A program made the position numbers and the translations under genes. A stretch of DNA of 55,190 nt, filler included, from a bacterium (GTDB taxonomy: Bacteria > UBA9089 > CG2-30-40-21 > SBAY01): the NCBI GenBank assembly GCA_040757115.1. It is 3 parts of 3 records of this genome, joined end to end, with 100 filler letters (N's around TTAATTAATTAA, not from the genome) between each part and the next. Parts side by side here need not be neighbours in the genome. Positions count along the whole stretch, not along the records: positions 18,479 to 36,803 come from JBFLYA010000067.1; 2 more parts are not named here. One strand, 5' to 3'. Each line of letters starts with the position of its first letter. Positions within the stretch are counted from its first letter, which is position 1. The notes beneath the pieces are model-generated. The model was not told the origin of the DNA. It worked only from the letters and a program-made list of their open reading frames with translations, and ran no database searches. Positions 17,699-45,005 of this stretch are shown in pieces.

Positions 17699-17721
17699 AG
17701 AAATCTAAATCCAGTTATAAG

Positions 17722-18478: not shown

Positions 18479-18480
18479 CA

Positions 18481-19710: not shown

Positions 19711-19753
19711 CTCTTTTAGTCTATCCTCACCATAACCCTTAATTCTTCTATCT

Positions 19754-22675
19754 TCATCTCTCTCCATGCAAAATAAATGGTGCCCAGTAGAAGGGGTTAG
19801 GGTATTTTTTCTTTATCTCATTGCGGGCGAGTCTTAATGCCTCTCCTCGGGTCTTACCCTGTTTCAGGTGTTGATAAAATAACTCCATATACTCTCCAGT
19901 CTCTTTTGATGCTACCTCCCAGAGGCTTACGAGAACACTCCTTGCTCCTGCGTGTTGAAATGCCCTGGCAAAGTTCACTACTCCCTCACCTTCCATTACC
20001 TTTCCTCTGCCAGTGAGACAGGCTGAGAGAACCACTATGTCCGCATCCAGGCTTAGCCCTAATACCTCGGTTAAGGTCAGAAATCCATCATCTTCTCCCT
20101 TGTTTTCAACTTGTCCAAGGAGTAAGAAGGGTTCTTTTATGCCCTGCACCTTACCTGGTAAATCAGCATGGGTGGCAAAGTGGAGATAACGATAGTTTTT
20201 GAGTGTAGCCTTACGCAGGTTTGTCTCATTGGCATAGATATTTAATAAAACATCAGGGGGTTCTGATTTTACACCAAAAAGTCCTGCAATTGCTCTGACC
20301 TCGTCCTCTGTCTCAGGAAGTGGAATGAAAAACATCCCTTTGCCTTCTTTATCATCCTTACTTGTTTTTCCCCACTCTCGTCTTGTCGCAAGTCCTCGAT
20401 AGGCATATTGGGCCAGATTCTGGGTCAGCAAGGTAGGTTGTGGTTGCCCTTTTTTATAAGCGATGTAACGAGGGTCATTCTTATCATAAATGGGATTCCC
20501 AAGGGCAAATAAGATTTTAGAAGCCTGAGATGGTTTGAGCATACGGTTTAAGGCAAGGATTGATGCTGATTGGCAATATGTTGTCTTATACTTATCACCT
20601 ACATAAAGGCTATCTCGATAATCCTTTCCTGTGCTTATTACCAGTGCCTCAAAGGGAAGTAGTCCTAATATGCCATCAGGGATGATAATAATCTCTTTAT
20701 CGGGTGATATGCCTTTTAATGCATCTTCTAAGAGAAGACAATAGAGGCTTTGACCAAGGAAGGGAGAAAAATCTTCTTGGGTATATGGGCTTTGCAAGGG
20801 CAAGACAAACTCCTCAACCAATGCCTCTATCCCTTCTTTATCTTTGGGAATCTTTATCAGTCTCTCTACCTTTCCTTTACTCACCACAAAGAGATATGTG
20901 GCATCATCGCATATAGCATACTCCAGAAGAATCTCATTCTCCTTTAGAGGTAATTCCTCAACCGGAATAGGTTTTGGGTAATTTAGGCTGGCATAGCGTG
21001 GGTATTCCCTTCTCATATTTGAGATAAGCACATCAAGTTCCTTCTTTAAAGTTTCCTTCCTCTTTACCCATTCCTTAAACACATCCTCACCCTTTGTATA
21101 CATCTGTGTCCATTGCTCTTCTATGGCAGAGAGTCTATTCAGGATGTCTTCCTCTTTGTTTTTTATCTCAGGAGGTAGTTCTGACTTAAAGTATCCTCTA
21201 ACTGATTCGGCGATTGCCTCAAGCAAAACCCTTGCCCTGGTTGATTCAGCAAAGTAAAAGCTCGTGGATAAGAGGTCTTTGCCATAAGGCTTAAACCTTT
21301 CATCTATTGTTTCTCCCGTGATTACCCTTTCTGAGAGGGTAGAGATAAGCCCTTTATATGACCTGATTCTTCCACCATAATAACCTGCCCCAAAGAATCC
21401 TGCTTTCTCTCCTTTGATTCTCGCTCTCATTTCCTCAGAGATGGATACTGCCTGAAGGAATTCAGCTGATGCCTCCTTGAATTTACCCATCCCTTTTAAT
21501 CCCAGACCATTCTGGGTATAAACCTGGATACGATATGGGTCAGCAGTATTCCATTTTGGTGCCATTTCCTTAAGGAGGTTTAATGCCTCATTATGCCTTC
21601 CGGTAGCAATATAAAGCTCAACAAAACCAGATCTTCCTTTTGCCTCACTGAAATACTTTTCAGCCTCTTTATATCTTTTTTGAGATAGGTAAATATCACC
21701 AATATTATTCAGGCTTATGGCGATATCCTGAGGAATATTGAGTTCTTTTCTTATCTTCAATGCCTCCTCAAAGTAGCTTAATGCCTTCTCATACTGACCA
21801 AGGAAGTAGTAAACATAACCGATATTATTCAGGCTTGTGGCGATATCCTGAGGGATATTGAGTTCTCTATATATCTTCAATGCCTCCTCATAGTAGTTCA
21901 ATGCCTTTTCATACTGACCAAGGGAGGAGTAAACAGCACCGATATTATTCAGGCTTGTGGCGATATACTGAGGGATATTGAGTTGTCTTCTTATCTTCAA
22001 TGCCTCTTCATAGTAGTTCAATGCCTTTTCATACTGACCAAGGGAGTCGTAAACAAGACCGATATCATTCAGGCTTATGGCTATATACTGAGGGATATTG
22101 AGTTGTCTTACTATCTTCAATGCCTCCTCATAGTAGTTCAATGCCTTATCATACTGACCAAGGTGGTGGTAAACAAGACCGATATTATTCAGGCTTATGG
22201 CTATATACTGAGGGATATTGAGTTCTCTATATATCTTCAATGCCTCCTCCAAGTAGTTTAATGCCTTTTCATACTGACCAAGGGAGCAATAAACAAAACC
22301 GATATTATTCAGGCTTGTGGCGATAGATTCTGGTGATAGATTGTTTTCTCTTTTTATCTTCAGTGCCTCCTCATAGTAGTTCAATGCCTTCTCATACTGA
22401 CCAAGGGAGTTGTATACATAACCGATATCATTGAGATTTGCCGTAATAACCCGAAGATGATTTAAATCACGACAAATTTTTAATGACCTTTCATAATACG
22501 CCAGTGCTTCCTGATACCTTCCATATTTCTTTGCTTCCTTTCCCTGATTGTAAAGTCTTAGTGCTTTGTAAAGTCTTAGTGCTTCATCTACTGACTGTGA
22601 AAAGGTATTTCCCCAACACCCTATTACAAACAAAGCAATGAATAAAATGAATAAAGTAATTATTTTTCTCTTCAT
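19754..22675 (-). CDS. Exported TPR-CHAT (caspase-like) protease
   Basis: Signal peptide; about 8 40-aa TPRs; CHAT motifs IIPDGILGLLPFEAL, LPETEDEV, LHFATHA, VVLSACLTG, LVSLWEV, PFYWAPF; His/Cys dyad intact. Confidence 0.92.
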   Translation of the reverse strand: MKRKIITLFILFIALFVIGCWGNTFSQSVDEALRLYKALRLYNQGKEAKKYGRYQEALAYYERSLKICRDLNHLRVITANLNDIGYVYNSLGQYEKALNYYEEALKIKRENNLSPESIATSLNNIGFVYCSLGQYEKALNYLEEALKIYRELNIPQYIAISLNNIGLVYHHLGQYDKALNYYEEALKIVRQLNIPQYIAISLNDIGLVYDSLGQYEKALNYYEEALKIRRQLNIPQYIATSLNNIGAVYSSLGQYEKALNYYEEALKIYRELNIPQDIATSLNNIGYVYYFLGQYEKALSYFEEALKIRKELNIPQDIAISLNNIGDIYLSQKRYKEAEKYFSEAKGRSGFVELYIATGRHNEALNLLKEMAPKWNTADPYRIQVYTQNGLGLKGMGKFKEASAEFLQAVSISEEMRARIKGEKAGFFGAGYYGGRIRSYKGLISTLSERVITGETIDERFKPYGKDLLSTSFYFAESTRARVLLEAIAESVRGYFKSELPPEIKNKEEDILNRLSAIEEQWTQMYTKGEDVFKEWVKRKETLKKELDVLISNMRREYPRYASLNYPKPIPVEELPLKENEILLEYAICDDATYLFVVSKGKVERLIKIPKDKEGIEALVEEFVLPLQSPYTQEDFSPFLGQSLYCLLLEDALKGISPDKEIIIIPDGILGLLPFEALVISTGKDYRDSLYVGDKYKTTYCQSASILALNRMLKPSQASKILFALGNPIYDKNDPRYIAYKKGQPQPTLLTQNLAQYAYRGLATRREWGKTSKDDKEGKGMFFIPLPETEDEVRAIAGLFGVKSEPPDVLLNIYANETNLRKATLKNYRYLHFATHADLPGKVQGIKEPFLLLGQVENKGEDDGFLTLTEVLGLSLDADIVVLSACLTGRGKVMEGEGVVNFARAFQHAGARSVLVSLWEVASKETGEYMELFYQHLKQGKTRGEALRLARNEIKKKYPNPFYWAPFILHGER
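21700..22435 (-). repeat. 120-bp near-identical tandem DNA repeats encoding TPRs
   Basis: Period 120 visible at 21781/21901/22021/22141/22261. Confidence 0.92.
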
Positions 22676-22765
22676 TTTTTTATAACCTCCTTATAAAAGT
22701 AGCCATTTCCAGAGTGGAAAAGTTTCCACCTGTGCGGTTAGATTAACCTTCCTCACATCTTTTAA

Positions 22766-23096
22766 AACCACGAACGACCCACAAGTGGGTACCCCGGAAG
22801 GGGATGAAGAATTATAAACCAAATCGTAACTATTCAGCCACAGATGGACACGGATGAAACACGGAAAAATCGGTGAGGCGTGTTCGGTATCCGTGTCTGT
22901 AATCAGGCTGAAGGCTGAAGGGCTTTTCTTCTTCTAACTTCCACCTTCCTTAATCCCCCGCCAGCGGGGGACATCTATCTCTACCCTCTGCTTTCTCGCC
23001 CCTTGCATCTTGTCTTCTACTATCTGCTATTTATCCGTGTTAATCTGTGGCTGAATAATTACATTTTCTTCGTGGTCTTCGTGCCCTTCGTGGTTT
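22766..23096. repeat. Nested hairpin repeats (inner element 22826-23062 with GTAA...TTAC ends)
   Basis: GTAACTATTCAGCCACAGAT vs ATCTGTGGCTGAATAATTAC; outer AACCACGAA / TTCGTGGTT. Confidence 0.75.
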
Positions 23097-23112
23097 ATCT
23101 TAATCGCATTAG

Positions 23113-23171
23113 TGACCATCCTATTGGTTAAATATAGCAAGATTATAACCATTATAATGGTTATTTGTCAA
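23113..23171 (-). promoter_or_regulatory. sigma70-like promoter for the CHAT gene overlapped by palindromic operators
   Basis: TTGACA(23171-66)-N18-TATAAT(23147-42); perfect palindrome ATAACCATTATAATGGTTAT at 23145-64; second site TGACCA-N6-TGGTTA at 23113-30. Confidence 0.65.
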
Positions 23172-23213
23172 GTTAAATCGCAACCACCAGTAGCTATTTT
23201 CATTTTTTTTCAC

Positions 23214-24008
23214 TCATCTATGCTTAAATTGATACATTCCGAATACCAGACCTGGTAATTTATCTGTTACCTGGTCATTATGAATTAAGTGCGAAACGAG
23301 TTTTTCTGTCAAATCTCTTTTGTAAGTCAGTTCTCTTTCTGCATTCAGTCTGGCAGTTAATTCTTCCAGTCCCTCCTGTCTCCACCTTGAAGCTACCAGG
23401 TATATCTTCTCTGTCCCGGGTATATCGTCTAAGGAAAACCAATTAGCGTCATTGGGAATTCGTAGTGGTCCTGGTGGTATAGGATTAGGTGTTGGGATAT
23501 CTTTACCTGGAAAGAGTTGTTTTAAGACTCCAGAGCTATTTAATTGAAAGATATAGAGATAACAATAGTCAGATGCATAAGTTGTCAGGTAATAAGGGTC
23601 ATTGCTGGTTAGGATTAGGGTATCAGATGGAGTTTTAGCGGTAACAAATCTCTTTTGAGCAGGCAGGTAATGGAATTTGGAGTCAACCTTAAGTTCATCC
23701 ATTAACAGGGAGTAGAGATTCTTTAGTGAGGCATCCTCGGGATTTGTCTTAAGCCTTTGGTTAAGTTTTGTTATGGCTGTATCGTAGTCTCCAGATACAA
23801 TCATTTTATATATTTGTTCAGTGGAAACAGATGTGGTTTTCAGCCATTGTTTATTGACTGGTTTTGGTAATTTAAGGCTGGCTTTCTTAAGCCAATATCC
23901 TCCAGAGACTATGAGCAAAACAGCGATTGCTATTGGCAAGACGACTTTCATCATCAGCCTTTTTATTTTATCCCAGAATATCATTTGCTGTAATGGAGTT
24001 CCAAACAT
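23214..24008 (-). CDS. Membrane-anchored protein with TPR-like helix and DUF4384-like domain
   Basis: TM VVLPIAIAVLLIVSGGYWL; CYLYIFQLNSSG..QLFP..NPI....RIP....F.LDDIPGTEKIYLVAS. Confidence 0.75.
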   Translation of the reverse strand: MFGTPLQQMIFWDKIKRLMMKVVLPIAIAVLLIVSGGYWLKKASLKLPKPVNKQWLKTTSVSTEQIYKMIVSGDYDTAITKLNQRLKTNPEDASLKNLYSLLMDELKVDSKFHYLPAQKRFVTAKTPSDTLILTSNDPYYLTTYASDYCYLYIFQLNSSGVLKQLFPGKDIPTPNPIPPGPLRIPNDANWFSLDDIPGTEKIYLVASRWRQEGLEELTARLNAERELTYKRDLTEKLVSHLIHNDQVTDKLPGLVFGMYQFKHR

Positions 24009-24012
24009 AATA

Positions 24013-24714
24013 GTATCTCCTGATTGTAACTGTTCACCGCAGAGACACAGAGACGCAGAGAAGAAAATTAAAATTTATGGACGATACGCTTAATCCCATC
24101 CTTGATTTTCATCAGTGCAAGCTTTTGAGAACAGATTAATGTAACACTTTTAGCCATCTGAAGTGGAATCATGGTAATCAGTTATCGGTAATCGGTTATC
24201 GGTGACCGATTACCTGATTACCGACCACCGATTACCCGATTACCTTATGGTCACCATGTCCTATGTATTACCATGATGTCCTCAATAATCTTTTCTGTTA
24301 TCTGATTTATTTCCATATCTTCTCTGTTCCTCTGCGTCTCTGCGGTGAATTACTATCTGTATCTCCTGATTGTAACTGTTCACCGCAGAGACACAGAGAC
24401 GCAGAGAAGAAAATTAAAATTTATGGACGATACGCTTAATCCCATCCTTGATTTTCATCAGTGCAAGCTTTTGAGAACAGATTAATGTAACACTTTTAGC
24501 CATCTGAAGTGGAATCATGGTAATCAGTTATCGGTAATCGGTTATCGGTGACCGATTACCTGATTACCGACCACCGATTACCCGATTACCTTATGGTCAC
24601 CATGTCCTATGTATTACCATGATGTCCTCAATAATCTTTTCTGTTATCTGATTTATTTCCATATCTTCTCTGTTCCTCTGCGTCTCTGCGGTGAATTACT
24701 ATCGGAACGGTTAC
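24013..24714. repeat. Exact tandem duplication (period 346) of a GxxExxY-derived mini-element
   Basis: 24013-24357 = 24359-24703; each copy carries MEINQITEKII...IHRT (ATG 24316 / 24662, - strand) and KDGIKRIVHKF*; terminal GGAACGGTTAC at 24704-14. Confidence 0.9.
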
Positions 24715-25439
24715 AAAAATAGTTTCTTAAATGCATCTTCTGTTTCAGCTCGTTGATAAAAGTGGTCGTCAGTAATTTTCAGTTCTGCTGAGCTAAAGAT
24801 ATCTACCCAGGTATTGACAATGTTTTTAAATTCCTTTCTTCCTGAGGCATTAACATAAAGACAATAAACCTCTGTATCTATGGGAAACCTTAAATCATCG
24901 GCATCCTGAAGTCTTGGTGGCCAGGGATACTGAATCATATCAGAAAAGATGATGATTGTATTACGATAATTACCTTCTTCTCTGTTTAAGAAGTGGGCGG
25001 TATGATATAAGGCACCTAAGATATCCGTTCCTTTATAAACCTCCTGGCGCCTGGTTAATTCTTGCACAGCTTTACTTATCCTTGTCTTTTCTTGTATTGC
25101 CTGCAAGGTAGCTTCATTAAAGGTCTTTAGGGGAATCCTTACATCATCAATATCAAAGCCATGCTCATCAATCCCAATCACGCAGAACTTATCACCAGGC
25201 TGAATCTGGTTTACTATCCGTCTAACCCAGGGGACGACCTCTGGCCAAAACATAGTGATTTGCCCTTGTGAGCTGTGCAAGGCAAAAGAATCTGTCTCAT
25301 CTACTAAGACAATCACAAATCGGGGTTTTTCTGGTTGTTCCAATCCACCACATCCTGCTAATAACAGAAGAGGAATGCAGATACCTAATGTTGTTTTAAC
25401 TATGGGCAGAAAACGATGGATTTGTGAAAAAGTCTTCAT
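24711..25439 (-). CDS. Lipoprotein with vWA-like domain
   Basis: Lipobox LAGC; IVLVDETDS (MIDAS-like), GTDILGAL, IIIFSDM; stop codon supplied by the repeat end. Confidence 0.7.
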   Translation of the reverse strand: MKTFSQIHRFLPIVKTTLGICIPLLLLAGCGGLEQPEKPRFVIVLVDETDSFALHSSQGQITMFWPEVVPWVRRIVNQIQPGDKFCVIGIDEHGFDIDDVRIPLKTFNEATLQAIQEKTRISKAVQELTRRQEVYKGTDILGALYHTAHFLNREEGNYRNTIIIFSDMIQYPWPPRLQDADDLRFPIDTEVYCLYVNASGRKEFKNIVNTWVDIFSSAELKITDDHFYQRAETEDAFKKLFL

Positions 25440-25458
25440 TGGTGACTACCTCCTTTTT

Positions 25459-27129
25459 TTACCTTTTGCCCCAGTTCCATGGTAATAATAAAGATAGATA
25501 TTTGAGATTGTATTTCCATAGTAAACCTTTAAGTGTCTTCCTATGGTGGTTTACAGTCTCCTTTACCTTCCTGGTCCTATCTTCAACCGCCTTATATGGA
25601 GCCGTTGCTATCGCTGGGGTATATTGGTTAAATTTTTCTCTTAGTTCCTTCAGAGTTTTACTGAGATTTTCCAGGTCAGTTTCTATCCCTAGAAGTTTAT
25701 TAGACCGGACATTATTAGTGATTCTGTGGGATGTATCCAGGATATTTTCTGCACTTTCTTTTATCTTTCTATCCGAAGCCTTTGTCTCTTCTAATAAGCT
25801 CTCCAAATCCCTTCTTTGGTGATGAGGGATAACTGAAGACGGTGTTTGGACTCCGAGCAATATATTACTTATCTCCTGAGCGATGTTCTTTAAATCAATA
25901 TGTAAGGGTGAAGAATCTAACTTCAGCAAATCCGTTTCAGCATCTACAAGTTTAGGTCCAAAGTCATTTTTAAATCTATTTACTGTATCTTCCCATGTTT
26001 TTAGGGAAACAAACTGCACAACCTCTGGCAAAAATCGCTCAATCTCTTTATTCTGGTCATCTATCTCTTTATTAGCTTTTTTCACCGTCTTTTTTACCTG
26101 CTTCAATGAGCGCCAGTCATTAGCTTCTTCTATTCCCTTATCTATGTTATCTATCCTTGCGTCCCATTGTTTTATCTTGTTTTCAAATTGTCCTATTTTC
26201 TGTATCGGTTCATCAAAACTCTGAATTTTTTTCCCTAATATTTCGTTAGATGTTATCTCCGTCTTTAGTTCGTTAGTATCTTTCTTCAATTTTTCAACCT
26301 TCTTTTCTAACTCATTAGTCTCATTCTTTAAGTCGGTTACCGCCTGGGGCACTTTCTCCCTCTGATGAATAATAACAGGTTTAGGAGATACACATACCCA
26401 CCAAACGCCTATACCCCAGACTGAAACCATTAATCCGCCAAACCAATACAGACCAACTTTGACCATTGGCTCTATGAATTGTCCGAAACCAAATGTGCCA
26501 GCAAGAATCTCACCGATAGGGACAAAGAGACCAATAATCCCTGCTAACCATGGGCCATATTTAGATATTATTATATCCACCTGTGTAGGTGAGATTGGTA
26601 TTTCGCCAGCATTCAATAGATATGCCCGCCAAATAGCAAGCCCTGCTTCACAAACAATTGATAAGGCAATCAGGATGAAGAGACAAATCTTTGCAAGTTT
26701 GGTCCAGAAGGTTTCGGCTCTGATAGCTTTAAATATTACCCCAAAGACTGTCTGAGTAATTGCCCAGAGAAAGCCCATTATTAAAGGGAAGACAGAGTAA
26801 GTTCCTACCCAGGGGAGGGGAATTCGTCTTCCACCACCAGGAAAGACCATTTCTAAAACCTGTGCCAATATAAGCACATTCAAGGCAATAAGAAATGGCC
26901 AGAGTAAGGCACAGAGAAATCCTACAACCGAGGCACCTTGTGGTAAATGGTGGAATAACTCGCCTGCTTTTCTCCACCAGCGGCTTCGATTGTCACATCC
27001 CCATTGACAACTATCCCGATTAAAGGGGAAGTACTTATTAAATAACCAGAAAAACCGTTGAATCAAACCGAGCACGATAATTACTATAAAGGGTAGCGAA
27101 ACCCAGATTTTAAAATCAGAAATCTCCAT
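25459..27129 (-). CDS. Hypothetical multi-pass membrane protein with long C-terminal coiled coil
   Basis: About 6 hydrophobic segments in the first 250 aa, then heptad-rich K/E helices; strong SD AGGAGG. Confidence 0.75.
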   Translation of the reverse strand: MEISDFKIWVSLPFIVIIVLGLIQRFFWLFNKYFPFNRDSCQWGCDNRSRWWRKAGELFHHLPQGASVVGFLCALLWPFLIALNVLILAQVLEMVFPGGGRRIPLPWVGTYSVFPLIMGFLWAITQTVFGVIFKAIRAETFWTKLAKICLFILIALSIVCEAGLAIWRAYLLNAGEIPISPTQVDIIISKYGPWLAGIIGLFVPIGEILAGTFGFGQFIEPMVKVGLYWFGGLMVSVWGIGVWWVCVSPKPVIIHQREKVPQAVTDLKNETNELEKKVEKLKKDTNELKTEITSNEILGKKIQSFDEPIQKIGQFENKIKQWDARIDNIDKGIEEANDWRSLKQVKKTVKKANKEIDDQNKEIERFLPEVVQFVSLKTWEDTVNRFKNDFGPKLVDAETDLLKLDSSPLHIDLKNIAQEISNILLGVQTPSSVIPHHQRRDLESLLEETKASDRKIKESAENILDTSHRITNNVRSNKLLGIETDLENLSKTLKELREKFNQYTPAIATAPYKAVEDRTRKVKETVNHHRKTLKGLLWKYNLKYLSLLLPWNWGKR

Positions 27130-27152
27130 CGTCTTTTAACCTCCTATTTTAG

Positions 27153-27181
27153 TTATCGCATCAAATTATATTTTTTCTCAC
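27153..27181 (-). promoter_or_regulatory. Putative cognate promoter of the island sigma factor (copy 2)
   Basis: GTGAGAAAAAAT-N11-CGATAA, same spacing as 29473-29501. Confidence 0.65.
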
Positions 27182-27182
27182 C

Positions 27183-28307
27183 TCAATCTATGTGTTGGAA
27201 TCTAAATTCTTTATAAAAATCTACCATCTTTTGAATGGTTTCCTTTCTTTTTTCCACAGGTAATACCTTTAACTTCTCTGAAAACAAATTGTTAGATGAG
27301 CGACTGGAGGCAAGAAAATAAAGCTTTTCTTCTCCTGTTTTCTCATCCAGATAATAGCAGGTATCCTCTGATGGAATCCAGTAAGATACACCTTCCTTAA
27401 GTGGATTTGTTTCCCTACTATATTTAACATTAGGGAATAAAATATCGAACTTACCCGAAGAGTCAATCTGGTATATATAGAGATAACATTTAGTATCAGG
27501 TTTAATCTTAAACTGATAGTTATCTTTAGAGCTAAGAGAGAGATTTGAATTACTGTCTTCTTCTATAAGGTTTAGATATTGATGTTGTGGATTGTAATAA
27601 TGGAATTCCATTTCCTGAAAACTAAAGGGTTTTTTACTCACATTGTTTCCTAATACCCGATATCCAATTATAGCTAAAGCCATTATAGCCATCAAGATTA
27701 GCAGATATTTTCTGCCTGGCTTTTTATCAGGAGAACCATCGGGGATTCCCTTCAAAAGTGATTCTATTGCCTCCTTTACTGTAGATACAGGTATAGCCTC
27801 TATCTGGCTTGTCATTATCCTTTCTCTTAGATTGCTATCTATCTCTGCATCATTTTCCTTAGGATAGAATATCTTATCACCCTTCTTTAAGATGCCAAGA
27901 GTAGATTGGAGTTTTTCGTTTATTCCGTTTACCCTTTTTACTACGGCGTCGGCAGTTGAGTCTGAAATTACCCCTGTGGCAGAGATGGAGAATGGTAAAG
28001 GGTTGCCTTTCTTTCGACAAATTTCTTCCGCAAACTTAAGTGAGAATGCTAACCCTGCACTTTCGCCAAATGCCTTAGAAGGAGCTAAATCCTTAAATTC
28101 GTATGAAACAGCTTGTTTTTTGTTCTCTATCAATATTCTTCTATCTCTGAGGATATGATAAACCGAGATAGTCCCCTTCTTAGCTGAAGCTTCTATTTGT
28201 AAGTTATCTTGATTAATCACAAAAACCTCTATTGGTTTATCTGAAAAATAAGACCCCATTAACAACTCACTTATTGTGTTATCCTCAAATAGAGCAAATA
28301 CACCCAT
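27183..28307 (-). CDS. Lon (S16) protease domain - TM helix - DUF4384-like domain
   Basis: FGESAGLA (Ser83), ISATG, VKRVNGINEK (Lys132), IFYPKEN, IPVSTVKEAI; TM YLLILMAIMALAIIGY; CYLYIYQIDSSG..ILFPN..NPL..YWIP..YYLDEKTGEEKLYFLAS. Confidence 0.8.
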   Translation of the reverse strand: MGVFALFEDNTISELLMGSYFSDKPIEVFVINQDNLQIEASAKKGTISVYHILRDRRILIENKKQAVSYEFKDLAPSKAFGESAGLAFSLKFAEEICRKKGNPLPFSISATGVISDSTADAVVKRVNGINEKLQSTLGILKKGDKIFYPKENDAEIDSNLRERIMTSQIEAIPVSTVKEAIESLLKGIPDGSPDKKPGRKYLLILMAIMALAIIGYRVLGNNVSKKPFSFQEMEFHYYNPQHQYLNLIEEDSNSNLSLSSKDNYQFKIKPDTKCYLYIYQIDSSGKFDILFPNVKYSRETNPLKEGVSYWIPSEDTCYYLDEKTGEEKLYFLASSRSSNNLFSEKLKVLPVEKRKETIQKMVDFYKEFRFQHID

Positions 28308-28317
28308 TTATTATACC

Positions 28318-28698
28318 TCAATCTTTAGGTTTGACGAAGAGCTTTTTAAGGTCAATATCTCTTATCTTTTTAACCTTCTGCGCTACCCTTCCTGAAACAA
28401 TTTTCCCTTCAAGGAAGACCTCTCCTTTATCATTTGTAACTATTATACTTCTTCCCTCAATCTGGTTCTGATAAGGTTCGCTAACCTCCACAGTAATGAG
28501 TCCGTTTTCTGGCTCATCGATATTCTCTCTGAGTGCCAATCTATATTTCTTTCCTTCTGTATAAATGCTCATCATTCCCTGGAACTCTGTCGATGCCATT
28601 TTGGGCAAGGCTATGTCCCAGACTATAGCCTCTCTTTCTTGTTGCTTCCATTGTCCCCATAAAGTTAAAGCTTCATTTAAGGTTACCTCTCTTTTCAT
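28318..28698 (-). CDS. Hypothetical protein, candidate anti-sigma / protease substrate
   Basis: SD GGAGGTGG; lies between sigma and Lon-like genes; short helical N-terminus, LPKMAST linker, beta-rich C-terminus. Confidence 0.65.
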   Translation of the reverse strand: MKREVTLNEALTLWGQWKQQEREAIVWDIALPKMASTEFQGMMSIYTEGKKYRLALRENIDEPENGLITVEVSEPYQNQIEGRSIIVTNDKGEVFLEGKIVSGRVAQKVKKIRDIDLKKLFVKPKD

Positions 28699-28745
28699 TT
28701 TACCACCTCCGTTGGATAATTAGATAATATGTTCGGAACACGAAT

Positions 28746-29465
28746 CTAAAGGACATCTATCATTGACCACCCTTTCTTCTCCATACACTTCTTCAATATC
28801 TGCTTAGCTTTTTTTTCTTTCCTCTGAGTAGTAGGTATAGACATACCTAATGTTTCAGCTACCTCTTTTAGTGTTTTCCCTTCTACATATCTTTGTTCGA
28901 TTATTTTCTTCTCTATTAAAGGGAGTTGTTCAATACATGAATTTAAAGCTCTGACAATTTCTTTCTCTTCTAATTTCTGACCAGGGCGTTTATTTCCAGT
29001 AGGGATTATATCTGAAATCTCAACCTCCTCTCCGTTCTTTGTAAAAATGGGAGTATCAAGTGATATGAAGACCAAATGCCAGGATTCTATTTCCTTTACT
29101 TCTTTTTCAGAAATACATAGTTTTTCAGCCATCTCTTTTCTAGTCGGCTCCCTACCAAGTGCTTGAGCAAACTCTTCCTTTATTCGTTTATATTCACTCA
29201 GTTTTTTTCTCTTTTCTGGAGGAAGATAATCCGACTTTCTCAAAAAATCTCTGATAGCTCCGTTAACACGATAGAAAGCATAGGTAGTAAATTTAGCACC
29301 TTTTTCAGGATTAAATGCCCTCGCTGCTTCTACCAAACCTAAGAGGGCTTCCTGAATAAGGTCATCTCTCTCCACTTTTACTCCACAGTTAACTAATTTT
29401 GGATATACCGCATTAACTTTGGAGATTGCCCAGTGATAGTACTTTTCTATTTTTATCTCTTCCAT
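28746..29465 (-). CDS. RNA polymerase sigma factor, FliA/WhiG (sigma28-like) family
   Basis: DDLIQEALLGLVEAARAFNPEKGAKFTTYAFYRVNGAIRDFLRK; LGREPT; region 4 KTLKEVAETLGMS. Confidence 0.9.
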   Translation of the reverse strand: MEEIKIEKYYHWAISKVNAVYPKLVNCGVKVERDDLIQEALLGLVEAARAFNPEKGAKFTTYAFYRVNGAIRDFLRKSDYLPPEKRKKLSEYKRIKEEFAQALGREPTRKEMAEKLCISEKEVKEIESWHLVFISLDTPIFTKNGEEVEISDIIPTGNKRPGQKLEEKEIVRALNSCIEQLPLIEKKIIEQRYVEGKTLKEVAETLGMSIPTTQRKEKKAKQILKKCMEKKGWSMIDVL

Positions 29466-29472
29466 AATTTTA

Positions 29473-29501
29473 TTATCGTTTAGATTTTAATTTTTTCTCA
29501 C
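29473..29501 (-). promoter_or_regulatory. Putative autoregulatory promoter of the sigma gene (copy 1)
   Basis: GTGAGAAAAAAT-N11-CGATAA ending 7 nt before the ATG; no SD visible. Confidence 0.65.
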
Positions 29502-29520
29502 ACAAAATCTGCTCTTAATC

Positions 29521-29549
29521 ATTATACTAAAAAATCTCATTCTTGGCAA
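29521..29549 (-). promoter_or_regulatory. sigma70-like promoter for the sigma operon
   Basis: TTGCCA-N17-TATAAT. Confidence 0.65.
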
Positions 29550-29566
29550 CATTAAAGTTTGTTTTT

Positions 29567-29703
29567 CAGAAATTCTCGGTGAAAAATTAGATAGAGACTC
29601 ATTATTCTTTATTTTCCTCTCAAAATATTTACGAAAAATATTTTTCTCTATCTCTCCTCAACATAGGTGAATTCAGTCTCTAAAAATTCACCGAGAATTG
29701 CTG
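29567..29703 (-). mobile_element. 137-bp MITE, second copy, no TSD
   Basis: Reverse complement of 8458-8594 with a few substitutions. Confidence 0.9.
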
Positions 29704-29720
29704 CATAAAAGGAAAAAAAC

Positions 29721-29749
29721 TTGACCAGCCATCTAAATTATGCTATAAT
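29721..29749 (+). promoter_or_regulatory. sigma70-like promoter of asmA operon
   Basis: TTGACC-N17-TATAAT with TG extension. Confidence 0.65.
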
Positions 29750-29824
29750 ACTTATCGCAATTATTAAATTACATTAACTCACTTCCAAAAATTCTAAAGT
29801 GGTTGTTAATGATAACAAGAGGTT

Positions 29825-31891
29825 ATGAAAAAGAAATCGTTAATCTTTATCAGTATATTTATTCTAATTTTAGTTCTTGGGGCTATTATCCTTCCGTTTA
29901 TTACTATTTCCTCACCTCAACTAACCAAATTTATTTCAAACCAGTTAGAGAAAAATTTAGCACGAAAGGTCGAAATAGGCAGATTGAAAATTGGTATTTT
30001 GACCGGCATTGAATTACACGATGTAGTTGTCTTTAACAAATCAGGATTTAAGAGTAAAGCGTTGATAGAAAACAAGAGACTTATTTTGAAATATAGGTTT
30101 TTCCCTTTGCTAAAAAGACAATTAATAGTTACTAATCTTTTATTTATTGAACCAACGATTTTTATCGAGCGAAATAAATCTAATAGATGGAATTTTACAG
30201 ATTTGTTGAAAAAGAATACTTATAAAAGAGAGAAAGAAGCGGGTAACTTTTCTTTTCAAATAGATAAGATAAGGGTAAAAAAAGGAAGCATATATTTTTT
30301 AGATGAGGGAATTTCACCAAAATTGAAAACATCTATTGAAAAGATTGATATTCAAATAGATGGATTAAATAAAAGAGACGGGATAATTGGATTTAGAGTA
30401 AGAGCCGGGGAAATTGGTGGGAGGAGAATTAATCTTAAACTCGGAGGCGGGGTTGAGGTTGACCTGGATTCAGGAGTAATAGAAATAGTTACAGCGACAT
30501 TTACATTAGCCGATTTAAAAGCCGAACTCGAAGGAGGACTAAAAGATGAATTAATCAACATAACCCTGAAAACTAATGAGTTCTCTATAGCTAATATAAT
30601 TAGATTAATTCCATTTCCTGACATTGAAAAACTAAAACTCGCTGGTAAAAGTAAAATAAATGTATCTTTAAATAGCAGGCTAAATGAAAATTTACAGGTT
30701 TTAGGTCGGGTGATATTAAAAAATGGTAAAGTAGAATATGAGGGGGTAAGGAACGGTATTAAAGATATTAACTTAGACCTGCAATTTACTGAAGACGATA
30801 TGAACTTACTATCCCTGACCGGCCAATTCGGTGAGTCTAATTTTAATATGCAGGGAGAACTCCAAAATTTCAAAAATCCTAAGATAAATTTTATGGTTCG
30901 CTCACAACAACTTATTTTAGATGAAATAATAGAGGGTTATGGTGAATTTATTGAAGCATTCCCAAATCTGAAATTTGACCAACAATATAAATTAGATGTG
31001 AAAGGGGAAATTAATGTAGATGAATGGTCTTTTAAGAAAATTATAGGTAAGGAATTTTATACTGATTTTAAATGGGTTAGGAATATCCTGATGATTAAGG
31101 CATTAAAAAGTAAGGTTTCTGATGGAGTGGTAGAGGCTTCTGGAACGATAGATTTAGGTAGTAAATTGCCAGGATATTCTGTCTTTGCTAATGCAAAACA
31201 AATCGAAATTGCCAACATCATATCAAGTTTTTCTGAGACAAATAACAGGTTTGTTTGTGGTAAGTTGAGTTCAGAGATAAATATTAAAGGAGCGGGATTT
31301 AAACTAAATGAATTAAAAGAAAATTTAGAAGGTTCTGGAAGTGTAGAATTAAAAGATGCAAAGATAAAAGGATTAAAGATATTAGATAGATTAGCGGCTT
31401 TCCTTACTTTAGGCGTGATTCGTAACCTGACTCAATGTCATATATTAACGACATTTAAGATAGAAGATGGAATAATATCAAGTGATGACTTTGAATTGAG
31501 AAGTCATTTAATTAAACTGTTAGGCAGTGGTAAAATATCCCTTGACTTAGATATGGACTTTAATATGACCGCGACATTCCCCGGACGATTAGGAAAACAA
31601 ATCTCTAAATTAGGAAAAATAATTCCATTCCTGGGTGATAAAAAAGACAGGATGGGTGTTCGGTTTAGAATTAAAGGTAATTTTAAAGAGCCTGAATTTG
31701 CCAGGACAGAAGAAATAAAACAAAAGATTGAATTAGAAACTAAAGAAGAAAAGGAAAAAATTAAGGAAAAAATACAGCAACAGGTTGAAAAAGAAAAGGA
31801 AGAGATTAAAGAAATAATAGAAGAAAAACAGGAAAAGATTAAAGAAAAAGCAAAGGAAGAGGTTAACAAATTGTTCAAAAAATTATTTTAG
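29825..31891 (+). CDS. AsmA-family protein
   Basis: N-terminal TM, LARKVEIGRL, IERNKSNRWNFTDL, repeated beta-groove pattern, AsmA-like C-terminus. Confidence 0.8.
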   Translation: MKKKSLIFISIFILILVLGAIILPFITISSPQLTKFISNQLEKNLARKVEIGRLKIGILTGIELHDVVVFNKSGFKSKALIENKRLILKYRFFPLLKRQLIVTNLLFIEPTIFIERNKSNRWNFTDLLKKNTYKREKEAGNFSFQIDKIRVKKGSIYFLDEGISPKLKTSIEKIDIQIDGLNKRDGIIGFRVRAGEIGGRRINLKLGGGVEVDLDSGVIEIVTATFTLADLKAELEGGLKDELINITLKTNEFSIANIIRLIPFPDIEKLKLAGKSKINVSLNSRLNENLQVLGRVILKNGKVEYEGVRNGIKDINLDLQFTEDDMNLLSLTGQFGESNFNMQGELQNFKNPKINFMVRSQQLILDEIIEGYGEFIEAFPNLKFDQQYKLDVKGEINVDEWSFKKIIGKEFYTDFKWVRNILMIKALKSKVSDGVVEASGTIDLGSKLPGYSVFANAKQIEIANIISSFSETNNRFVCGKLSSEINIKGAGFKLNELKENLEGSGSVELKDAKIKGLKILDRLAAFLTLGVIRNLTQCHILTTFKIEDGIISSDDFELRSHLIKLLGSGKISLDLDMDFNMTATFPGRLGKQISKLGKIIPFLGDKKDRMGVRFRIKGNFKEPEFARTEEIKQKIELETKEEKEKIKEKIQQQVEKEKEEIKEIIEEKQEKIKEKAKEEVNKLFKKLF

Positions 31892-31899
31892 AGGTAAAA

Positions 31900-33045
31900 A
31901 TGATGAAGATTGCTTTAGATGCAACCTATGCCGGACAATCATCTTCACAAAAAGGTGGGATTTATCAATATATCTTTCATCTTGTTCAAGCATTGAGTGA
32001 AGTGGATAAAGAAAATAAGTATTTATTGTTTTTTAGCTTTTTTAGAAATAAGCATCGTCAGACAACTGATGAATTCTACTCTTTGTTTAAAAAAGCAGGT
32101 TACGGCAGGAAAGATTGTCGGATTCCTTCTCTTATCTGGAAAAGACTCCAATTCCCAATCGAACTATTTACAGGCAAAATTGACCTTTTCCATGGGCTTT
32201 TTGATTATGTTCCGAGAATGCTTTCTGGAAAGTCTATTGTCACTATTCATGACTTAGCCTATTTACGCAGACCTGAGTTTTTAGGAAGTAAAAGGGTGAA
32301 GTGGAAATATAAAGAAACACCTTTAGCCGTCAGGCGAGCAGATGCTATCATTACTGTTTCTAATTTTAGTAAAAATGACCTTATTAAATTACTTGGTATT
32401 CCTGAAGAGAAAATTTGGGTAACACCACATGGCGTCTCCCCTGATTTTACTCCGATACAAGACAAAGAAATATTAGAGAGAATTAAAATAAAATATAGAA
32501 TTAAGGAAAATTATATTTTGTTTGTCGGGGTACTTCAGCCAAATAAAAATATTGTTAAGTTATTAGAAGCATTTTCCTTATTAAAAAATTCTTGCAAATT
32601 AGAACATCAATTGGTTATTGCCGGTGAAAAAGGATGGCTTTATGAGGATATTTTTAAGAAATACAATGAATTAAAGTTAGGAGATACGGTTATTTTTACA
32701 GGATATGTTCCTGATGGTGACCTTCCTGCGTTATATAGTGGCGCAGACCTTTTTATTCTGCCATCCCAATTAGAAGGTTTTGGCATACCTGTTTTAGAGG
32801 CAATGGCTTGTGGGACACCAGTAGTTACCTCCAATACTTGTGCTTTGCCTGAAACAGCCGGGGATGCGGCTATTTTAGTTAAACCCGATTCTGTCCATGA
32901 AATTGCCGGGGGAATATATCAGGTGCTGTCTGATAATAATTTACAAGCAAGTTTGCGACAAAAAGGATTTGCTCACGCTAAGAAATTTACCTGGGAAAAT
33001 ACGGCAAAAATGACGCTGGAGGTTTATAGAAAGGGGATTCTATGA
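31900..33045 (+). CDS. Glycosyltransferase family 4
   Basis: VTIHDL, EGFGIPVLEAMACGTPVV. Confidence 0.9.
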   Translation: MMKIALDATYAGQSSSQKGGIYQYIFHLVQALSEVDKENKYLLFFSFFRNKHRQTTDEFYSLFKKAGYGRKDCRIPSLIWKRLQFPIELFTGKIDLFHGLFDYVPRMLSGKSIVTIHDLAYLRRPEFLGSKRVKWKYKETPLAVRRADAIITVSNFSKNDLIKLLGIPEEKIWVTPHGVSPDFTPIQDKEILERIKIKYRIKENYILFVGVLQPNKNIVKLLEAFSLLKNSCKLEHQLVIAGEKGWLYEDIFKKYNELKLGDTVIFTGYVPDGDLPALYSGADLFILPSQLEGFGIPVLEAMACGTPVVTSNTCALPETAGDAAILVKPDSVHEIAGGIYQVLSDNNLQASLRQKGFAHAKKFTWENTAKMTLEVYRKGIL

Positions 33046-34142
33046 AAATAGCTATTATTGGCACAAGAGGAATACCTGCTCGCTATGGTGGGTTCGAAAC
33101 CTGCGTTCAGGAATTGAGTATGCGATTGGTGGAGAAAGGACACGAGGTAATAGTCTATTGTCGAAATAGCAACTCACCAGACCGACCTAAAGAATTTAAA
33201 GGGGTAAAACTCATTCACCTCCCTTCGGTTAGAACCAAAATAGCCGATACCTTTTCACATACCTTTTTTTCTATGATTCATGTTTTGTTTGGGCGGATTG
33301 ATGTTATCCTTGTTTTTAATGCGGCTAATAGCCCGTTATGCCTCATTCCAAAGTTATTTGGAAAGAAGATAGCCATCAATGTTGATGGACTTGAATGGAA
33401 AAGAAGGAAATGGGGCAAGACAGCTCAAACCTATTATCAATTTGCCGAATATCTGGCGACAAAGATATGTCACCAGATTATAGCAGATTCAAAGGCTATC
33501 CAGCAATATTACCTGAAACGGTATAACACAACCTCTACCTTCATTCCCTATGGGGCGGACATTGAAACTTCTTCAAATCCCAACATTCTTAAGGAGTATA
33601 ATTTAGACAGGGATAATTACTTTTTTGTGGTCACCCGATTGGAGCCAGAAAATAACCCGGATTTAACCATTCAAGCCTTTGAGCAGGTAAAAACAGATAA
33701 AAAACTGGTTATAGTTGGTGGGACAGGTTATAAAAGTCGGTTTGTTCAAGAACTAAGAAAGACAAAAGACAAAAGAATAATCTTTATGCCGCCTGTGTAT
33801 GAAAAAGACCACATCAAAGAATTATTCTGTAATTGCTATGCCTATGTTCATGGGAATGAAGTTGGTGGGACAAACCCTGCTTTATTAAGTGCTTTAGGTT
33901 ATGGGAATTGTGTTTTGGCTTTAAATGTGCCCTTTAATGAAGAGGTAGTGGGTGAAGCCGCTATTTTATATGATAGGTCAACCGAGGATTTAAGCCCAAA
34001 AATGCAATATCTTGTCGATAACCCTGATGTCGTCGCCGACTATAGAAAGAGAGCAGTAAATAGAATAAAGAAGGCAGAATATACCTGGGAGAGAGTAACT
34101 GATGGTTATGAAGAACTTCTCGTAAGCCTTACAGAGTCTTAG
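33042..34142 (+). CDS. Glycosyltransferase family 4 (DUF1972-type)
   Basis: GTRGIPARYGGFET, NVDGLEWKR, RLEPENN, GNEVGGTNPALL. Confidence 0.9.
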   Translation: MKIAIIGTRGIPARYGGFETCVQELSMRLVEKGHEVIVYCRNSNSPDRPKEFKGVKLIHLPSVRTKIADTFSHTFFSMIHVLFGRIDVILVFNAANSPLCLIPKLFGKKIAINVDGLEWKRRKWGKTAQTYYQFAEYLATKICHQIIADSKAIQQYYLKRYNTTSTFIPYGADIETSSNPNILKEYNLDRDNYFFVVTRLEPENNPDLTIQAFEQVKTDKKLVIVGGTGYKSRFVQELRKTKDKRIIFMPPVYEKDHIKELFCNCYAYVHGNEVGGTNPALLSALGYGNCVLALNVPFNEEVVGEAAILYDRSTEDLSPKMQYLVDNPDVVADYRKRAVNRIKKAEYTWERVTDGYEELLVSLTES

Positions 34143-34216
34143 GTTTCACGCAAAGGACGCAAATGTAATTTTTTCCCTTATTTCCCTTTGCGTTCTTTGC
34201 GTGCTTTGCGTGAAAC
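34143..34216. terminator. CGCAAAG nonamer hairpin between convergent genes
   Basis: GTTTCACGCAAAG ... CTTTGCGTGAAAC. Confidence 0.55.
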
Positions 34217-34244
34217 TTCCTTTCTCCCTGTGAGGTTGAAAATT

Positions 34245-35225
34245 TTACTTTGTCATCTTCACCAGGTCATTCCGTTTAAATCCAGTGCCAGTGGTAATTA
34301 TTGCTACAGAATATTTTTCCTTTACTTCTATGACTTCAATCGTCCCCATTTTTTGTCCTTCTTCTCTACCAAGAGATAAACCGGTAACCGGGTCAATTAA
34401 TTCTTCTCCTATGGTCCAAACCTCCATTTTATCTCCAGTTTTAATCCCAACATCTATTCCACCATTGATAATGAGCCTTTCATCTTTTACCGTAACAATT
34501 CTTCCTTCCCATGGTTTAGCCTTTAATTGTCCCTCAATAAAACCTACCATATCTTCAATTGCTTGACGGGTAGCTTTACCTAAGGGGGTTTTATGAAAAT
34601 CAACTCCACCAATGGTTACATCACCTACCTTTACTCCACCGGCAACTATAACCGTATTTGCCTTTTGTTCAGTTCGATGTGATTCAATAATTTCACCCGT
34701 CGAGGCATCAAACATCCTGATATCAACGGCTACCTGGGCGGTGATTACGCCACCGCCACCAAGTGTAATACCCTTAACAAAGACTCCAACGCCTTTGATT
34801 GATTCAAACTGTGTAAATTCTGTAACTGCACCCTTAATTAAAATTTGAGCTCCAAGTATTTCACCAAATTTAGCCGCAGTTTCTGGTTTGATTCTATCCG
34901 CTTTTCCTAAATCCTGTTCTTTTAGCATATCTTGAAATGCCTTATTGTCCCGTTCCAGGACAATAGATTTACCCGTGTTATGGAGTGCGGTAATGAGCAT
35001 CTCTGACATCCCACTTCCAATTTTGGCTTCTACTCCAGGTGCTTTAACCTCAAAATCAAGCACCGCAACTCGTTTCTTCGGACCAAAATAAGATGTTGTT
35101 GAAGTCTCCTCATTACCTTTGGAACTCTTTTCCTTCTTTGCTCCTTCTATCATTTTAAAAGAGAGGATGATACTCAAGGAAACCATCACTCCAACATTAG
35201 CCCATTTTAAAAAAATTTTATTCAT
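34245..35225 (-). CDS. CsgG/HfaB-family protein with FlgT-like C-terminal domain
   Basis: KKRVAVLDF, GMSEMLITAL, VLER, KGAVTEF, VDIRMFDASTGEI. Confidence 0.82.
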   Translation of the reverse strand: MNKIFLKWANVGVMVSLSIILSFKMIEGAKKEKSSKGNEETSTTSYFGPKKRVAVLDFEVKAPGVEAKIGSGMSEMLITALHNTGKSIVLERDNKAFQDMLKEQDLGKADRIKPETAAKFGEILGAQILIKGAVTEFTQFESIKGVGVFVKGITLGGGGVITAQVAVDIRMFDASTGEIIESHRTEQKANTVIVAGGVKVGDVTIGGVDFHKTPLGKATRQAIEDMVGFIEGQLKAKPWEGRIVTVKDERLIINGGIDVGIKTGDKMEVWTIGEELIDPVTGLSLGREEGQKMGTIEVIEVKEKYSVAIITTGTGFKRNDLVKMTK

Positions 35226-35242
35226 CGTAATTTTTCCTCCTG

Positions 35243-36100: not shown

Positions 36101-36160
36101 TCTCCTCTCACTATTTTATGTTACACTATTTAGTCTCGAAAGTCAACTGAAATTTTTCGA

Positions 36161-44459: not shown

Positions 44460-44463
44460 ACCG

Positions 44464-45003: not shown

Positions 45004-45005
45004 CA

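Follow-up and report, generated by a model that had tools for sequence, protein, structure and literature searches.

How might a bacterial protein that joins a Lon-type proteolytic domain, without an ATPase, to a single membrane segment and a DUF4384 domain turn an event outside the cell into a response within it? Such a protein of 374 amino acids (aa) is encoded in a 55,190-nucleotide stretch of DNA from assembly GCA_040757115.1, a bacterium of the GTDB lineage UBA9089; CG2-30-40-21; SBAY01. This stretch, hereafter the window, consists of three parts of three records joined by filler, and the gene lies in the part derived from JBFLYA010000067.1 (positions 18,479 to 36,803). An earlier note had read the gene as an ATPase-less Lon domain wired as a single-pass receptor protease, cytoplasmic and activated by clustering of its external domain in the manner of oligomerization-driven CalpL. 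The analysis presented here indicates that this receptor-Lon protein is to be viewed together with two adjacent genes, encoding a small partner of 126 aa and a sigma-70 family factor, and that the trio is most likely a transmembrane, CRISPR-independent counterpart of the CalpL-CalpT-CalpS system. The sigma factor and the small partner were absent from the earlier note and carry most of the functional inference. Coordinates of all features are collected in Table 1.

The motifs of the Lon proteolytic domain (P-domain) were all found in the translation in the order and at the places claimed for them, namely GESAG at residues 81-85 (containing S83), SATG at 109-112, NGINEK at 127-132 (containing K132), PKEN at 149-152 and PVSTVKEA at 173-180. 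A word-index homologue search returned just three proteins, and phmmer with the single sequence against the PDB gave a marginal match to LonB 1z0b only (E 0.0045, with VNGINEK over VGGVTQK); a family profile was therefore needed. Residues 1-200 were then used as the query of an exhaustive phmmer search of 1.84 billion cluster representatives (50% identity), which identified 301 representatives at E<=1e-3; 131 of them passed E<=1e-10 and 9 passed E<=1e-30. Among the best 150 of the 301 the Lon-like domain was nearly always N-terminal, in proteins of 133 to 832 aa. The alignment of these 150 relatives (profile A2), used for conservation analysis and for AlphaFold2 modelling, matched Bacillus subtilis LonBA (8dvh, 1.4e-10) as the top PDB entry, then Archaeoglobus fulgidus LonB (1z0b, 2.7e-9) and many LonA entries, and the alignment to 8dvh placed the family GeSAG over GPSAG and the family IneK over the Lon lysine motif. 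The column of S83 was occupied by serine in 147 of the 150 sequences (two gaps and one arginine), that of K132 by lysine in 146 and that of T111 by threonine in 148, and the same Ser-Lys-Thr set is common to the Lon proteases.

The AlphaFold2 model produced with this alignment had a mean predicted local distance difference test score (pLDDT) of 92.2, the sole segment below 50 being residues 195-197, within a block (191-200) with a mean of 57. When the model was searched with Foldseek, 204 matches at E<=0.001 were observed, including the Escherichia coli Lon proteolytic domain (3wu3_B, E 1.7e-9, TMt 0.70), and an ESM Atlas look-up returned Lon clusters (TM 0.71-0.80 by query). VIA-align against 48,161 chains placed the E. 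coli Lon P-domain (1rr9_A) first, with Z 19.8 and a root-mean-square deviation (rmsd) of 2.6 over 173 aligned residues, covering model residues 2-188. It was followed by other Lon domains (LonA and LonB domains, 1rr9_A included, span Z 15.5-19.8; MtaLonC has 15.9), the C-terminal domain of BrxL (Z 16.6), RadA (Z 15.8) and ComM (Z 15.8) and, further down, CalpL (7qda_A, Z 10.6, 129 aligned) and birnavirus VP4 (2gef_B, Z 8.9; 4izj_A, Z 8.7). Since profile, conservation, model and structure searches agree, residues 1-190 are a complete Lon P-domain of MEROPS S16 type, starting at residue 1 and lacking an ATPase, with catalytic residues under selection, and in this respect the description of the domain as ATPase-less was borne out. 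The Lon homology of the protein comes to light only through the family profile and the structure model. By this homology S83 and K132 would be juxtaposed. No Pfam, NCBIfam or PADLOC model reaches the family: NCBIfam and PADLOC scans of the 374-aa protein gave zero matches, NCBIfam scans of three relatives gave LonB/Lon matches far below threshold, and relatives are annotated merely as "DUF4384 domain-containing" or "hypothetical".

Two other assignments of the domain were considered and set aside. A degenerate, inactive Lon-like domain was rejected on account of the conserved catalytic residues. An ATP-dependent Lon protease does not fit, since the P-domain aligns from residue 1-2, the relatives share the same start methionine and N-terminus, and no Pfam family other than DUF4384, AAA families included, was found in the protein; without an ATPase module it is not a LonA, LonB or LonC.

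A single hydrophobic stretch was present in the 374-aa protein, at approximately residues 201-220 (Kyte-Doolittle peak 2.31), and no hydrophobic segment was found N-terminal to the Lon domain, in agreement with the one transmembrane (TM) segment and the lack of a signal peptide described previously. The proposed DUF4384-like C-terminal domain was recovered by the Pfam model above its gathering score, and DUF4384 was also found in 52 of the 119 relatives scanned with Pfam, the remaining assignments among these including PD40 propeller repeats in 5 and a few immunoglobulin (Ig)-like domains of HYDIN/ASH/PKD type. Structural neighbours of the C-terminal beta-sandwich identified by VIA-align were generic Ig-like folds only (RhoGDI, Z 9.2; filamin, Z 8.7; all Z<=9.2), and no SAVED sensor was found in the protein, the C-terminal part of which consists of the TM helix and DUF4384. 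In 119 of the 150 relatives exactly one hydrophobic segment followed the Lon domain and none preceded it. The 15-residue flanks of this segment in these 119 contained a mean of 3.6 lysine plus arginine residues on the N-terminal side versus 1.6 on the C-terminal side, the N-terminal side being higher in 98, equal in 13 and lower in 8. The basic-before-TM topology claimed earlier is thus a property of the family, but is not clear in the window's own protein, in which the count is three against three.

Neighbouring DUF4384 and TPR-CHAT proteins have N-termini resembling signal peptides when read by eye, and the window's vWA-like protein, like its TPR-CHAT protein, opens with a lipoprotein-type sequence. 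Together with the family-level charge bias and the PD40 or Ig-like modules that replace DUF4384 in some relatives, these companions favour a location of the protease inside the cell and of DUF4384 outside, as had been claimed. Two DUF4384 open reading frames (ORFs) with signal-type N-termini were identified in related loci, one before the module in L011 (26-988) and one after it in L002 (7493-8536). Free periplasmic DUF4384 proteins thus appear to flank the module in two distant loci, suggesting recurrent companions.

In the window the sigma factor, the 126-aa partner, the receptor-Lon protein, a 556-aa protein, a von Willebrand factor A (vWA)-like lipoprotein, a 264-aa DUF4384 protein and a TPR-CHAT protein are encoded in this order on the same strand. 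A search with an 11-row alignment yielded 13 related loci, two from genomes (Cytophagia metagenome-assembled genomes) and 11 from metagenomes, which were compared by tblastn with the window's proteins and by reading of ORFs. L001 and L006 have the same sequence, giving 12 distinct loci, and L003 and L004 are near-identical, so that the independent count is lower than 13. A partner homologue was found directly upstream of the Lon gene on the same strand in 12 of the 13, the remaining one (L009) starting inside the Lon gene. A sigma factor homologue was present in all ten loci with sufficient flanking sequence: in eight (L001, L002, L004, L005, L007, L008, L010 and L013) it lies upstream in the same orientation as the Lon gene, and in two (L009 and L011) nearby on the opposite strand; in L003, L006 and L012 the contig ends first. 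TPR-CHAT genes were found directly downstream of the Lon gene in three loci (L003, L004 and L008). By gene presence across these loci, the conserved core is the trio of sigma factor, small partner and receptor-Lon protein, whilst TPR-CHAT and extra DUF4384 proteins appear as frequent accessories.

The sigma factor was matched by the Pfam models Sigma70_r2 (1.1e-13), Sigma70_r3 (2.1e-14) and Sigma70_r4 (1.7e-11) and by NCBIfam TIGR02937 (105 bits against a cut-off of 42.9); its best NCBIfam match was FliA_WhiG at 134 bits, which is under the cut-off of that model. Members of the module-linked sigma subfamily share a pair of invariant cysteines, C177 and C227 in the numbering of the window's protein, and past region 4 they end in a conserved tail, C-[LM]-E-x-K-G-W. 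These could form a contact or a redox or zinc site shared with the partner.

The small partner consists of an N-terminal helix, a disordered linker containing WDIALPKMASTE and a beta-domain at residues 43-126. Its family comprises 30 members at E<=1e-3, all unnamed and none with a precomputed Pfam domain, and for the window's member a Pfam scan at E<=1 returned noise only, while no sequence match was obtained in the PDB (best E = 1). A [PR]-K-A-A-x motif was present in the linker of 29 of the 30. Long-form partners (at least 160 aa) also carry an H-x3-C-x2-C motif in 20 of 22 cases, a pattern that is the signature of zinc-binding anti-sigma (ZAS) proteins. Pfam zf-HC2 was not detected in the eight long forms scanned, so that the label "anti-sigma" refers here to this ZAS-like motif. 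The AlphaFold2 model of the partner had a mean pLDDT of 73.1, with residues 1-6 and 11-40, the motif within them, below 50 and the beta-domain at about 87-92. When this model was compared with 48,161 chains by VIA-align, CalpT10 from the CalpL/T10 complex (8b0u_C) ranked first, with Z 6.4 and rmsd 3.2 over 71 of 76 residues (model residues 37-126), so that the fold alignment begins directly past the linker motif.

Docking of the partner to the Lon domain was predicted from two alignments, one of Lon residues 1-195 and one of the partner. The complex scored an ipSAE of 0.77, against 0.29 for the best control, at least 95% of contacts agreed between runs and the partner pLDDT was at least 75. 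Among solved complexes 58 of 80 attain this mark, and among mismatched pairs 2 of 110, counts that are only rough because own alignments were supplied here. On the Lon side the predicted interface lies on the N-terminal sheet (residues 18-23, 29-31, 33-36, 39-40, 65-66, 68, 70 and 99) and on the partner side in the beta-domain (residues 41-42, 44, 57-61, 66-67, 69, 82, 98-99, 101-102, 104 and 106-108). The complex model supports, but does not demonstrate, binding of the partner to the Lon domain.

These data are consistent with an interpretation whose chances we put at about even: that the receptor-Lon protein is a single-pass membrane receptor protease, with the Lon domain in the cytoplasm and DUF4384 outside, forming one unit with the sigma factor and the docked partner and operating by a mechanism like that of CalpL-CalpT-CalpS. 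An event at the outer face of the membrane, in which the exported TPR-CHAT protease and the protease-less DUF4384 paralogue encoded in this cluster may take part, would alter the state of the receptor, by analogy probably its oligomeric state. The Lon domain, presumed to hold the soluble partner by its beta-domain on the N-terminal sheet, would then cut the docked partner in the disordered linker, at the [P/R]-K-A-A-A that immediately precedes the beta-domain. After the cut the partner would lose its N-terminal piece, which in long-form relatives bears the H-x3-C-x2-C anti-sigma-like motif, and the sigma factor would be freed and transcription redirected. The analysis itself establishes the identity of the domains, the retention of the catalytic residues, a topology bias across the family, conserved synteny and a docking prediction that passes its controls. 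Catalysis, the cleavage site, partner-sigma binding, the nature of the signal and the mode of activation, clustering included, are inferred by analogy with CalpL.

A number of observations weigh against this interpretation. With regard to the protease, the Pfam Lon_C model (PF05362), which the earlier note had proposed as a check, gave no match to the 374-aa protein even at E<=1, and among the relatives it matched 11 of 119 at E<=0.001 (best 1.1e-6). With regard to topology, the protein's own TM flanks are balanced, with three lysine or arginine residues on each side. Most of the contrary points concern the partner. The one member of its family that departs from the linker motif is the window's own, which reads P-K-M-A-S, and the H-x3-C-x2-C insert was present in none of the six short-form partners, the window's included; the inference is therefore weaker for this particular copy. 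In the eight long-form partners scanned, Pfam zf-HC2 was not detected at E<=1. Foldseek with the partner model returned nothing at E<=0.001, and the first rank of CalpT10 in VIA-align was tied with sandwiches resembling Cu/Zn superoxide dismutase at Z 6.4, short of the Z of about 8 at which a match can be told from chance. The confident predicted interface includes neither S83 and K132 nor the linker motif, and the docking result may reflect the prediction model's memory of the solved CalpL-CalpT10 complex. Finally, the 13 loci were picked by two peptide patterns from a family of at least 301 and are biased to the DUF4384 subgroup.

Comparison with CalpL-CalpT-CalpS reveals a correspondence closer than that claimed in the earlier note, as the sigma factor and the docking partner are conserved neighbours and the partner beta-domain has CalpT10 as its top, tied, structural match. 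In both systems an ATPase-less Lon-type Ser-Lys protease is fused to a sensor domain, and both include an adjacent sigma factor and an adjacent small partner that docks through a small beta-domain, a mode predicted in the present case, with an Ala-rich site just before it; CalpL is moreover among the structural neighbours of the Lon domain. Homology between the partner and CalpT is suggested by the tied fold match, and no sequence match was found. According to a preprint (10.1101/2024.05.08.593097), CalpT binds CalpL at a distance from the active site and is cut in trans by a neighbouring filament subunit, and its cleavage exposes a degron ending in LAA that is needed for sigma release. The two systems differ in several respects. 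CalpL has a cytoplasmic SAVED domain that binds cyclic tetra-adenylate (cA4), whereas the protein studied here has a TM helix and a putative periplasmic DUF4384 domain; CalpL is encoded in a type III CRISPR locus, whereas no Cas family was found by Pfam in the 34 ORFs of the window that were scanned. CalpS resembles extracytoplasmic function (ECF) sigma factors, whilst the present sigma factor has regions 2, 3 and 4, and in place of the MazF-like N-terminal domain reported for CalpT the partner has a helix and, in its long forms, the ZAS-like motif. The Lon domain is far closer to canonical Lon than to CalpL, which was unmatched by the sequence profile at E<=1, and the receptor-Lon architecture therefore probably arose separately from CalpL. 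A CRISPR-linked CalpL was itself considered as an identity for the protein and rejected, there being no SAVED domain and no cas genes.

Other systems also share features with the trio. The Craspase loci (Cas7-11, Csx29, Csx30, Csx31 and RpoE; type III-E) combine TPR-CHAT, a sigma factor and small partners, and a C-terminal DUF4384 domain is described in some Csx30 proteins. Their TPR-CHAT protease is cytoplasmic and RNA-activated, with no Lon protease, whereas TPR-CHAT here has a signal- or lipoprotein-type N-terminus and lies outside the conserved core. Canonical Lon differs in having an AAA+ module; the receptor-Lon protein has no AAA+ or AAA-like module, its P-domain opens the chain at residue 1, and a TM helix C-terminal to that domain serves as the tether. 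LonB, by comparison, is anchored in the membrane via its ATPase domain. In the sigmaE cascade of RseA, DegS, RseP and ClpXP an envelope signal leads to sigma release by proteolysis, as proposed here, and a possible Ala-Ala C-terminal degron, left by cleavage, may be read from [PR]KAAA. That cascade employs three separate proteases and a membrane anti-sigma factor, whereas sensing, membrane passage and cleavage would here be combined in one receptor. The CalpT preprint (10.1101/2024.05.08.593097) describes both VAA and LAA degrons. In the DdvA-DdvS pathway of Myxococcus xanthus a periplasmic TPR-CHAT protein acts in a transmembrane pathway controlling a sigma factor, together with a cytoplasmic zinc-motif anti-sigma element (PMC11506125). 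The DdvA anti-sigma factor is itself membrane-spanning and release is proposed to need RseP, whereas here the protein that spans the membrane comes with a cytoplasmic protease of its own, and the partner with anti-sigma-like features is a soluble protein.

Alternative explanations must be weighed against the receptor protease. The predicted interface lies on a beta-sheet site without S83 and K132, and Lon folds devoid of protease function (RadA, ComM and BrxL) are among the top structural neighbours; both would suit a mechanism without cleavage, in which the Lon-like domain is a membrane docking platform that sequesters partner and sigma factor until an outside signal releases them by conformational change (partner switching), the Ser-Lys pair serving some other role or housekeeping turnover. 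Retention of the catalytic residues across the 150 relatives is hard to explain without catalysis, however, and the conserved Ala-rich motif stands in a disordered linker beside the docking domain, as in the cleaved CalpT, making such signalling quite unlikely. The presence of birnavirus VP4, a Ser-Lys Lon-like protease that acts on its own polyprotein, among the structural neighbours raises the question of whether the Lon domain might similarly cut its own linker and so release a protease-partner-sigma complex. The juxtamembrane linker (190-200) is the sole low-confidence part of the model, but it is not conserved in the family alignment and has no motif like the [PR]KAAx of the partner, and self-processing of this kind appears very improbable. 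A reversed orientation, with the Lon-like domain exported to the periplasm and DUF4384 in the cytoplasm, as it must be in Csx30, is barely credible: balanced charges at the window's own TM segment and the occurrence of DUF4384 in cytoplasmic Csx30 proteins would permit it, whereas the protein opens directly with the Lon fold and has no N-terminal signal sequence, the charge bias among relatives runs the other way (98 against 8), and the sigma factor and small partner are without export signals whilst companion DUF4384 proteins have signal-type N-termini.

A further possibility, which we consider unlikely, is that the receptor serves above all as a substrate for the exported TPR-CHAT protease. 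DUF4384 would in that case be a recognition domain rather than a ligand sensor, subject to a site-1-like cut in the periplasm, and its shedding would activate the Lon domain or expose it to degradation. Signal-type TPR-CHAT genes follow the Lon gene in three related loci (L003, L004 and L008), and one is present in the window's cluster. Fusions of DUF4384 to protease domains are described as frequent, and in some of the Csx30 proteins cut by Csx29 it makes up the C-terminal domain (10.1101/2022.08.17.504292); a periplasmic TPR-CHAT protein is proposed as the site-1 protease in the DdvA pathway (PMC11506125). On the other hand, TPR-CHAT is adjacent in just three of 13 loci, two of them near-identical, and so lies outside the conserved core; no cleavage motif was identified; and relatives with PD40 or Ig-like ectodomains cannot use DUF4384. 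Such a cascade can equally be the upstream half of the receptor protease mechanism preferred above and is then no true rival to it. Another reading, which we likewise consider unlikely, is a two-tier protease relay across the inner membrane. The TPR-CHAT lipoprotein and the DUF4384 ectodomains, that of the receptor and that of the protease-less paralogue, would form a periplasmic sensing layer, responding for example to envelope attack or phage entry; this layer would bring about receptor oligomerization, and the ATP-independent Lon domains would then make a trans cut in the CalpT-like partner at [P/R]KAA|A, yielding an Ala-Ala degron and freeing a dedicated sigma factor. The relay, carried on an accessory island, would be a transmembrane cousin or ancestor, independent of CRISPR, of both the CalpL and the Craspase arms.

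Table 1. Features of the receptor-Lon locus, with positions in the window
Feature	Position	Strand	Evidence and remarks
Receptor-Lon protein, 374 aa	27183..28307	(-)	Lon-type protease domain, one TM helix and DUF4384 Ig-like domain; AlphaFold2 mean pLDDT 92.2
Lon P-domain fold, aa 1-190	27738..28307	(-)	Profile, Foldseek, VIA-align, conservation
Catalytic codons S83; T111; K132	28059-28061; 27975-27977; 27912-27914	(-)	Coordinates checked
Single TM helix, aa 201-220 (YLLILMAIMALAIIGYRVLG)	27648..27707	(-)	Hydropathy; model helix 199-220
C-terminal beta-sandwich, aa 226-374	27186..27632	(-)	Holds DUF4384; probably periplasmic
Pfam DUF4384 (PF14326), aa 262-336	27300-27524	(-)	E 4.9e-14, 52.6 bits, cut-off 27
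Small partner, 126 aa	28318..28698	(-)	Ends 10 nucleotides before Lon gene start
Conserved linker motif of partner WDIALPKMASTE, aa 27-38	28585-28620	(-)	Alignment
Sigma-70 family factor, 239 aa	28746..29465	(-)	Regions 2, 3 and 4; FliA/SigF-like, not typical ECF
Polytopic membrane protein, 556 aa, with long coiled-coil tail	25459..27129	(-)	Weak coiled-coil-type matches only; module membership uncertain
Weak vWA-like lipoprotein, 242 aa (LLLAGC lipobox)	24711..25439	(-)	VWA_2 E 0.0017, below cut-off; membership uncertain
Protease-less sensor-half paralogue, 264 aa: TM, helical linker, DUF4384	23214..24008	(-)	Pfam DUF4384 3.3e-8
TPR-CHAT caspase-like protease, 973 aa	19754..22675	(-)	Pfam CHAT 8e-57 and TPRs

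Among the other genes of the cluster, the TPR-CHAT protein has a lipoprotein-type N-terminus when read by eye (MKRK...FVIGC) and HA/SAC motifs at 836/884. The 264-aa protein resembles the sensor half of a receptor-Lon protein, its residues 27-263 having 27% identity to residues 323-559 of the long-form receptor-Lon protein of L008 (E 3e-21), and it has 33% identity to the window's own DUF4384 domain. No homologue of the 556-aa or of the vWA-like protein was found in any of the 13 related loci. The 556-aa protein, encoded between the Lon and vWA-like genes, has a polytopic N-terminal half and gave weak PADLOC matches to the ZorA tail (1.6e-4), LmuB and JetC. An Rfam scan of the window identified no RNA family, and scans for promoters and terminators gave fewer hits than shuffled sequences (23 versus 29.5 and 6 versus 8.0, respectively).

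The nearest related genome compared (G001) has 95% identity to positions 29780-34000 of the window, whilst over 16000-29780 it gave no long match, only short multi-copy repeats, and no Lon-domain homologue was found in it with the 200-aa query. The family was detected in none of 24 genomes of the phylum at E<=1e-8 (17 of them with completeness of 90% or more and contamination of 5% or less), which is not proof of absence. Because these genomes lack matches, the module is placed on an accessory stretch studded with dispersed repeats, and the whole cluster, with a radical-SAM/B12 gene (16139-17698) counted in, has the appearance of an accessory island that such repeats both delimit and break up. 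The repeats shared with G001, at 19248-19727, 22717-23065, 24026-24732 and 29543-29716 of the window, occur on dozens of its contigs, often at contig ends. Between the vWA-like and 264-aa genes a 346-bp unit is present as a perfect tandem pair (24013-24357 and 24359-24703, 345 identical bases), with partial copies at 48247-48500 and 54721-54868 and ends that look like inverted repeats by eye; it may be an element resembling a miniature inverted-repeat transposable element, or the tandem could be an assembly duplication. Transposase- or integrase-type ORFs were observed upstream of the island at 9025-10437 and 10716-11231 (DDE_Tnp_1 1.4e-7; rve 1.6e-9). Elsewhere in the window, positions 37087-42824 encode a pair of very large right-handed beta-helix proteins of 1147 and 761 aa, the latter containing PD40 repeats, directly followed by a PilM-PilN-PilO-secretin cluster at 43356-48242.

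In the literature within reach, most subscription journals lying outside it, no account was found of a receptor in the membrane that carries a Lon-type protease domain and is linked to a sigma factor, and a preprint on ECF reclassification contained no occurrence of Lon, CHAT, DUF4384 or S16. In known envelope-to-sigma routes a membrane anti-sigma factor is cut by separate site-1 and site-2 proteases, and known ATPase-less Lon-type signalling proteases, exemplified by CalpL, sense a cytoplasmic nucleotide. The trio described here suggests an undescribed conversion of an outside signal into gene regulation by protein cleavage. The conserved [P/R]KAAA linker provides a directly testable candidate cleavage site, and the co-located exported TPR-CHAT protein a testable link between DUF4384 and caspase-like proteases. 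If correct, a receptor carrying its own cytoplasmic Lon-type protease and a docked soluble partner would amount to a third, less elaborate way of signalling across the membrane by proteolysis, and the logic of CalpL-CalpT-CalpS would not be tied to CRISPR.

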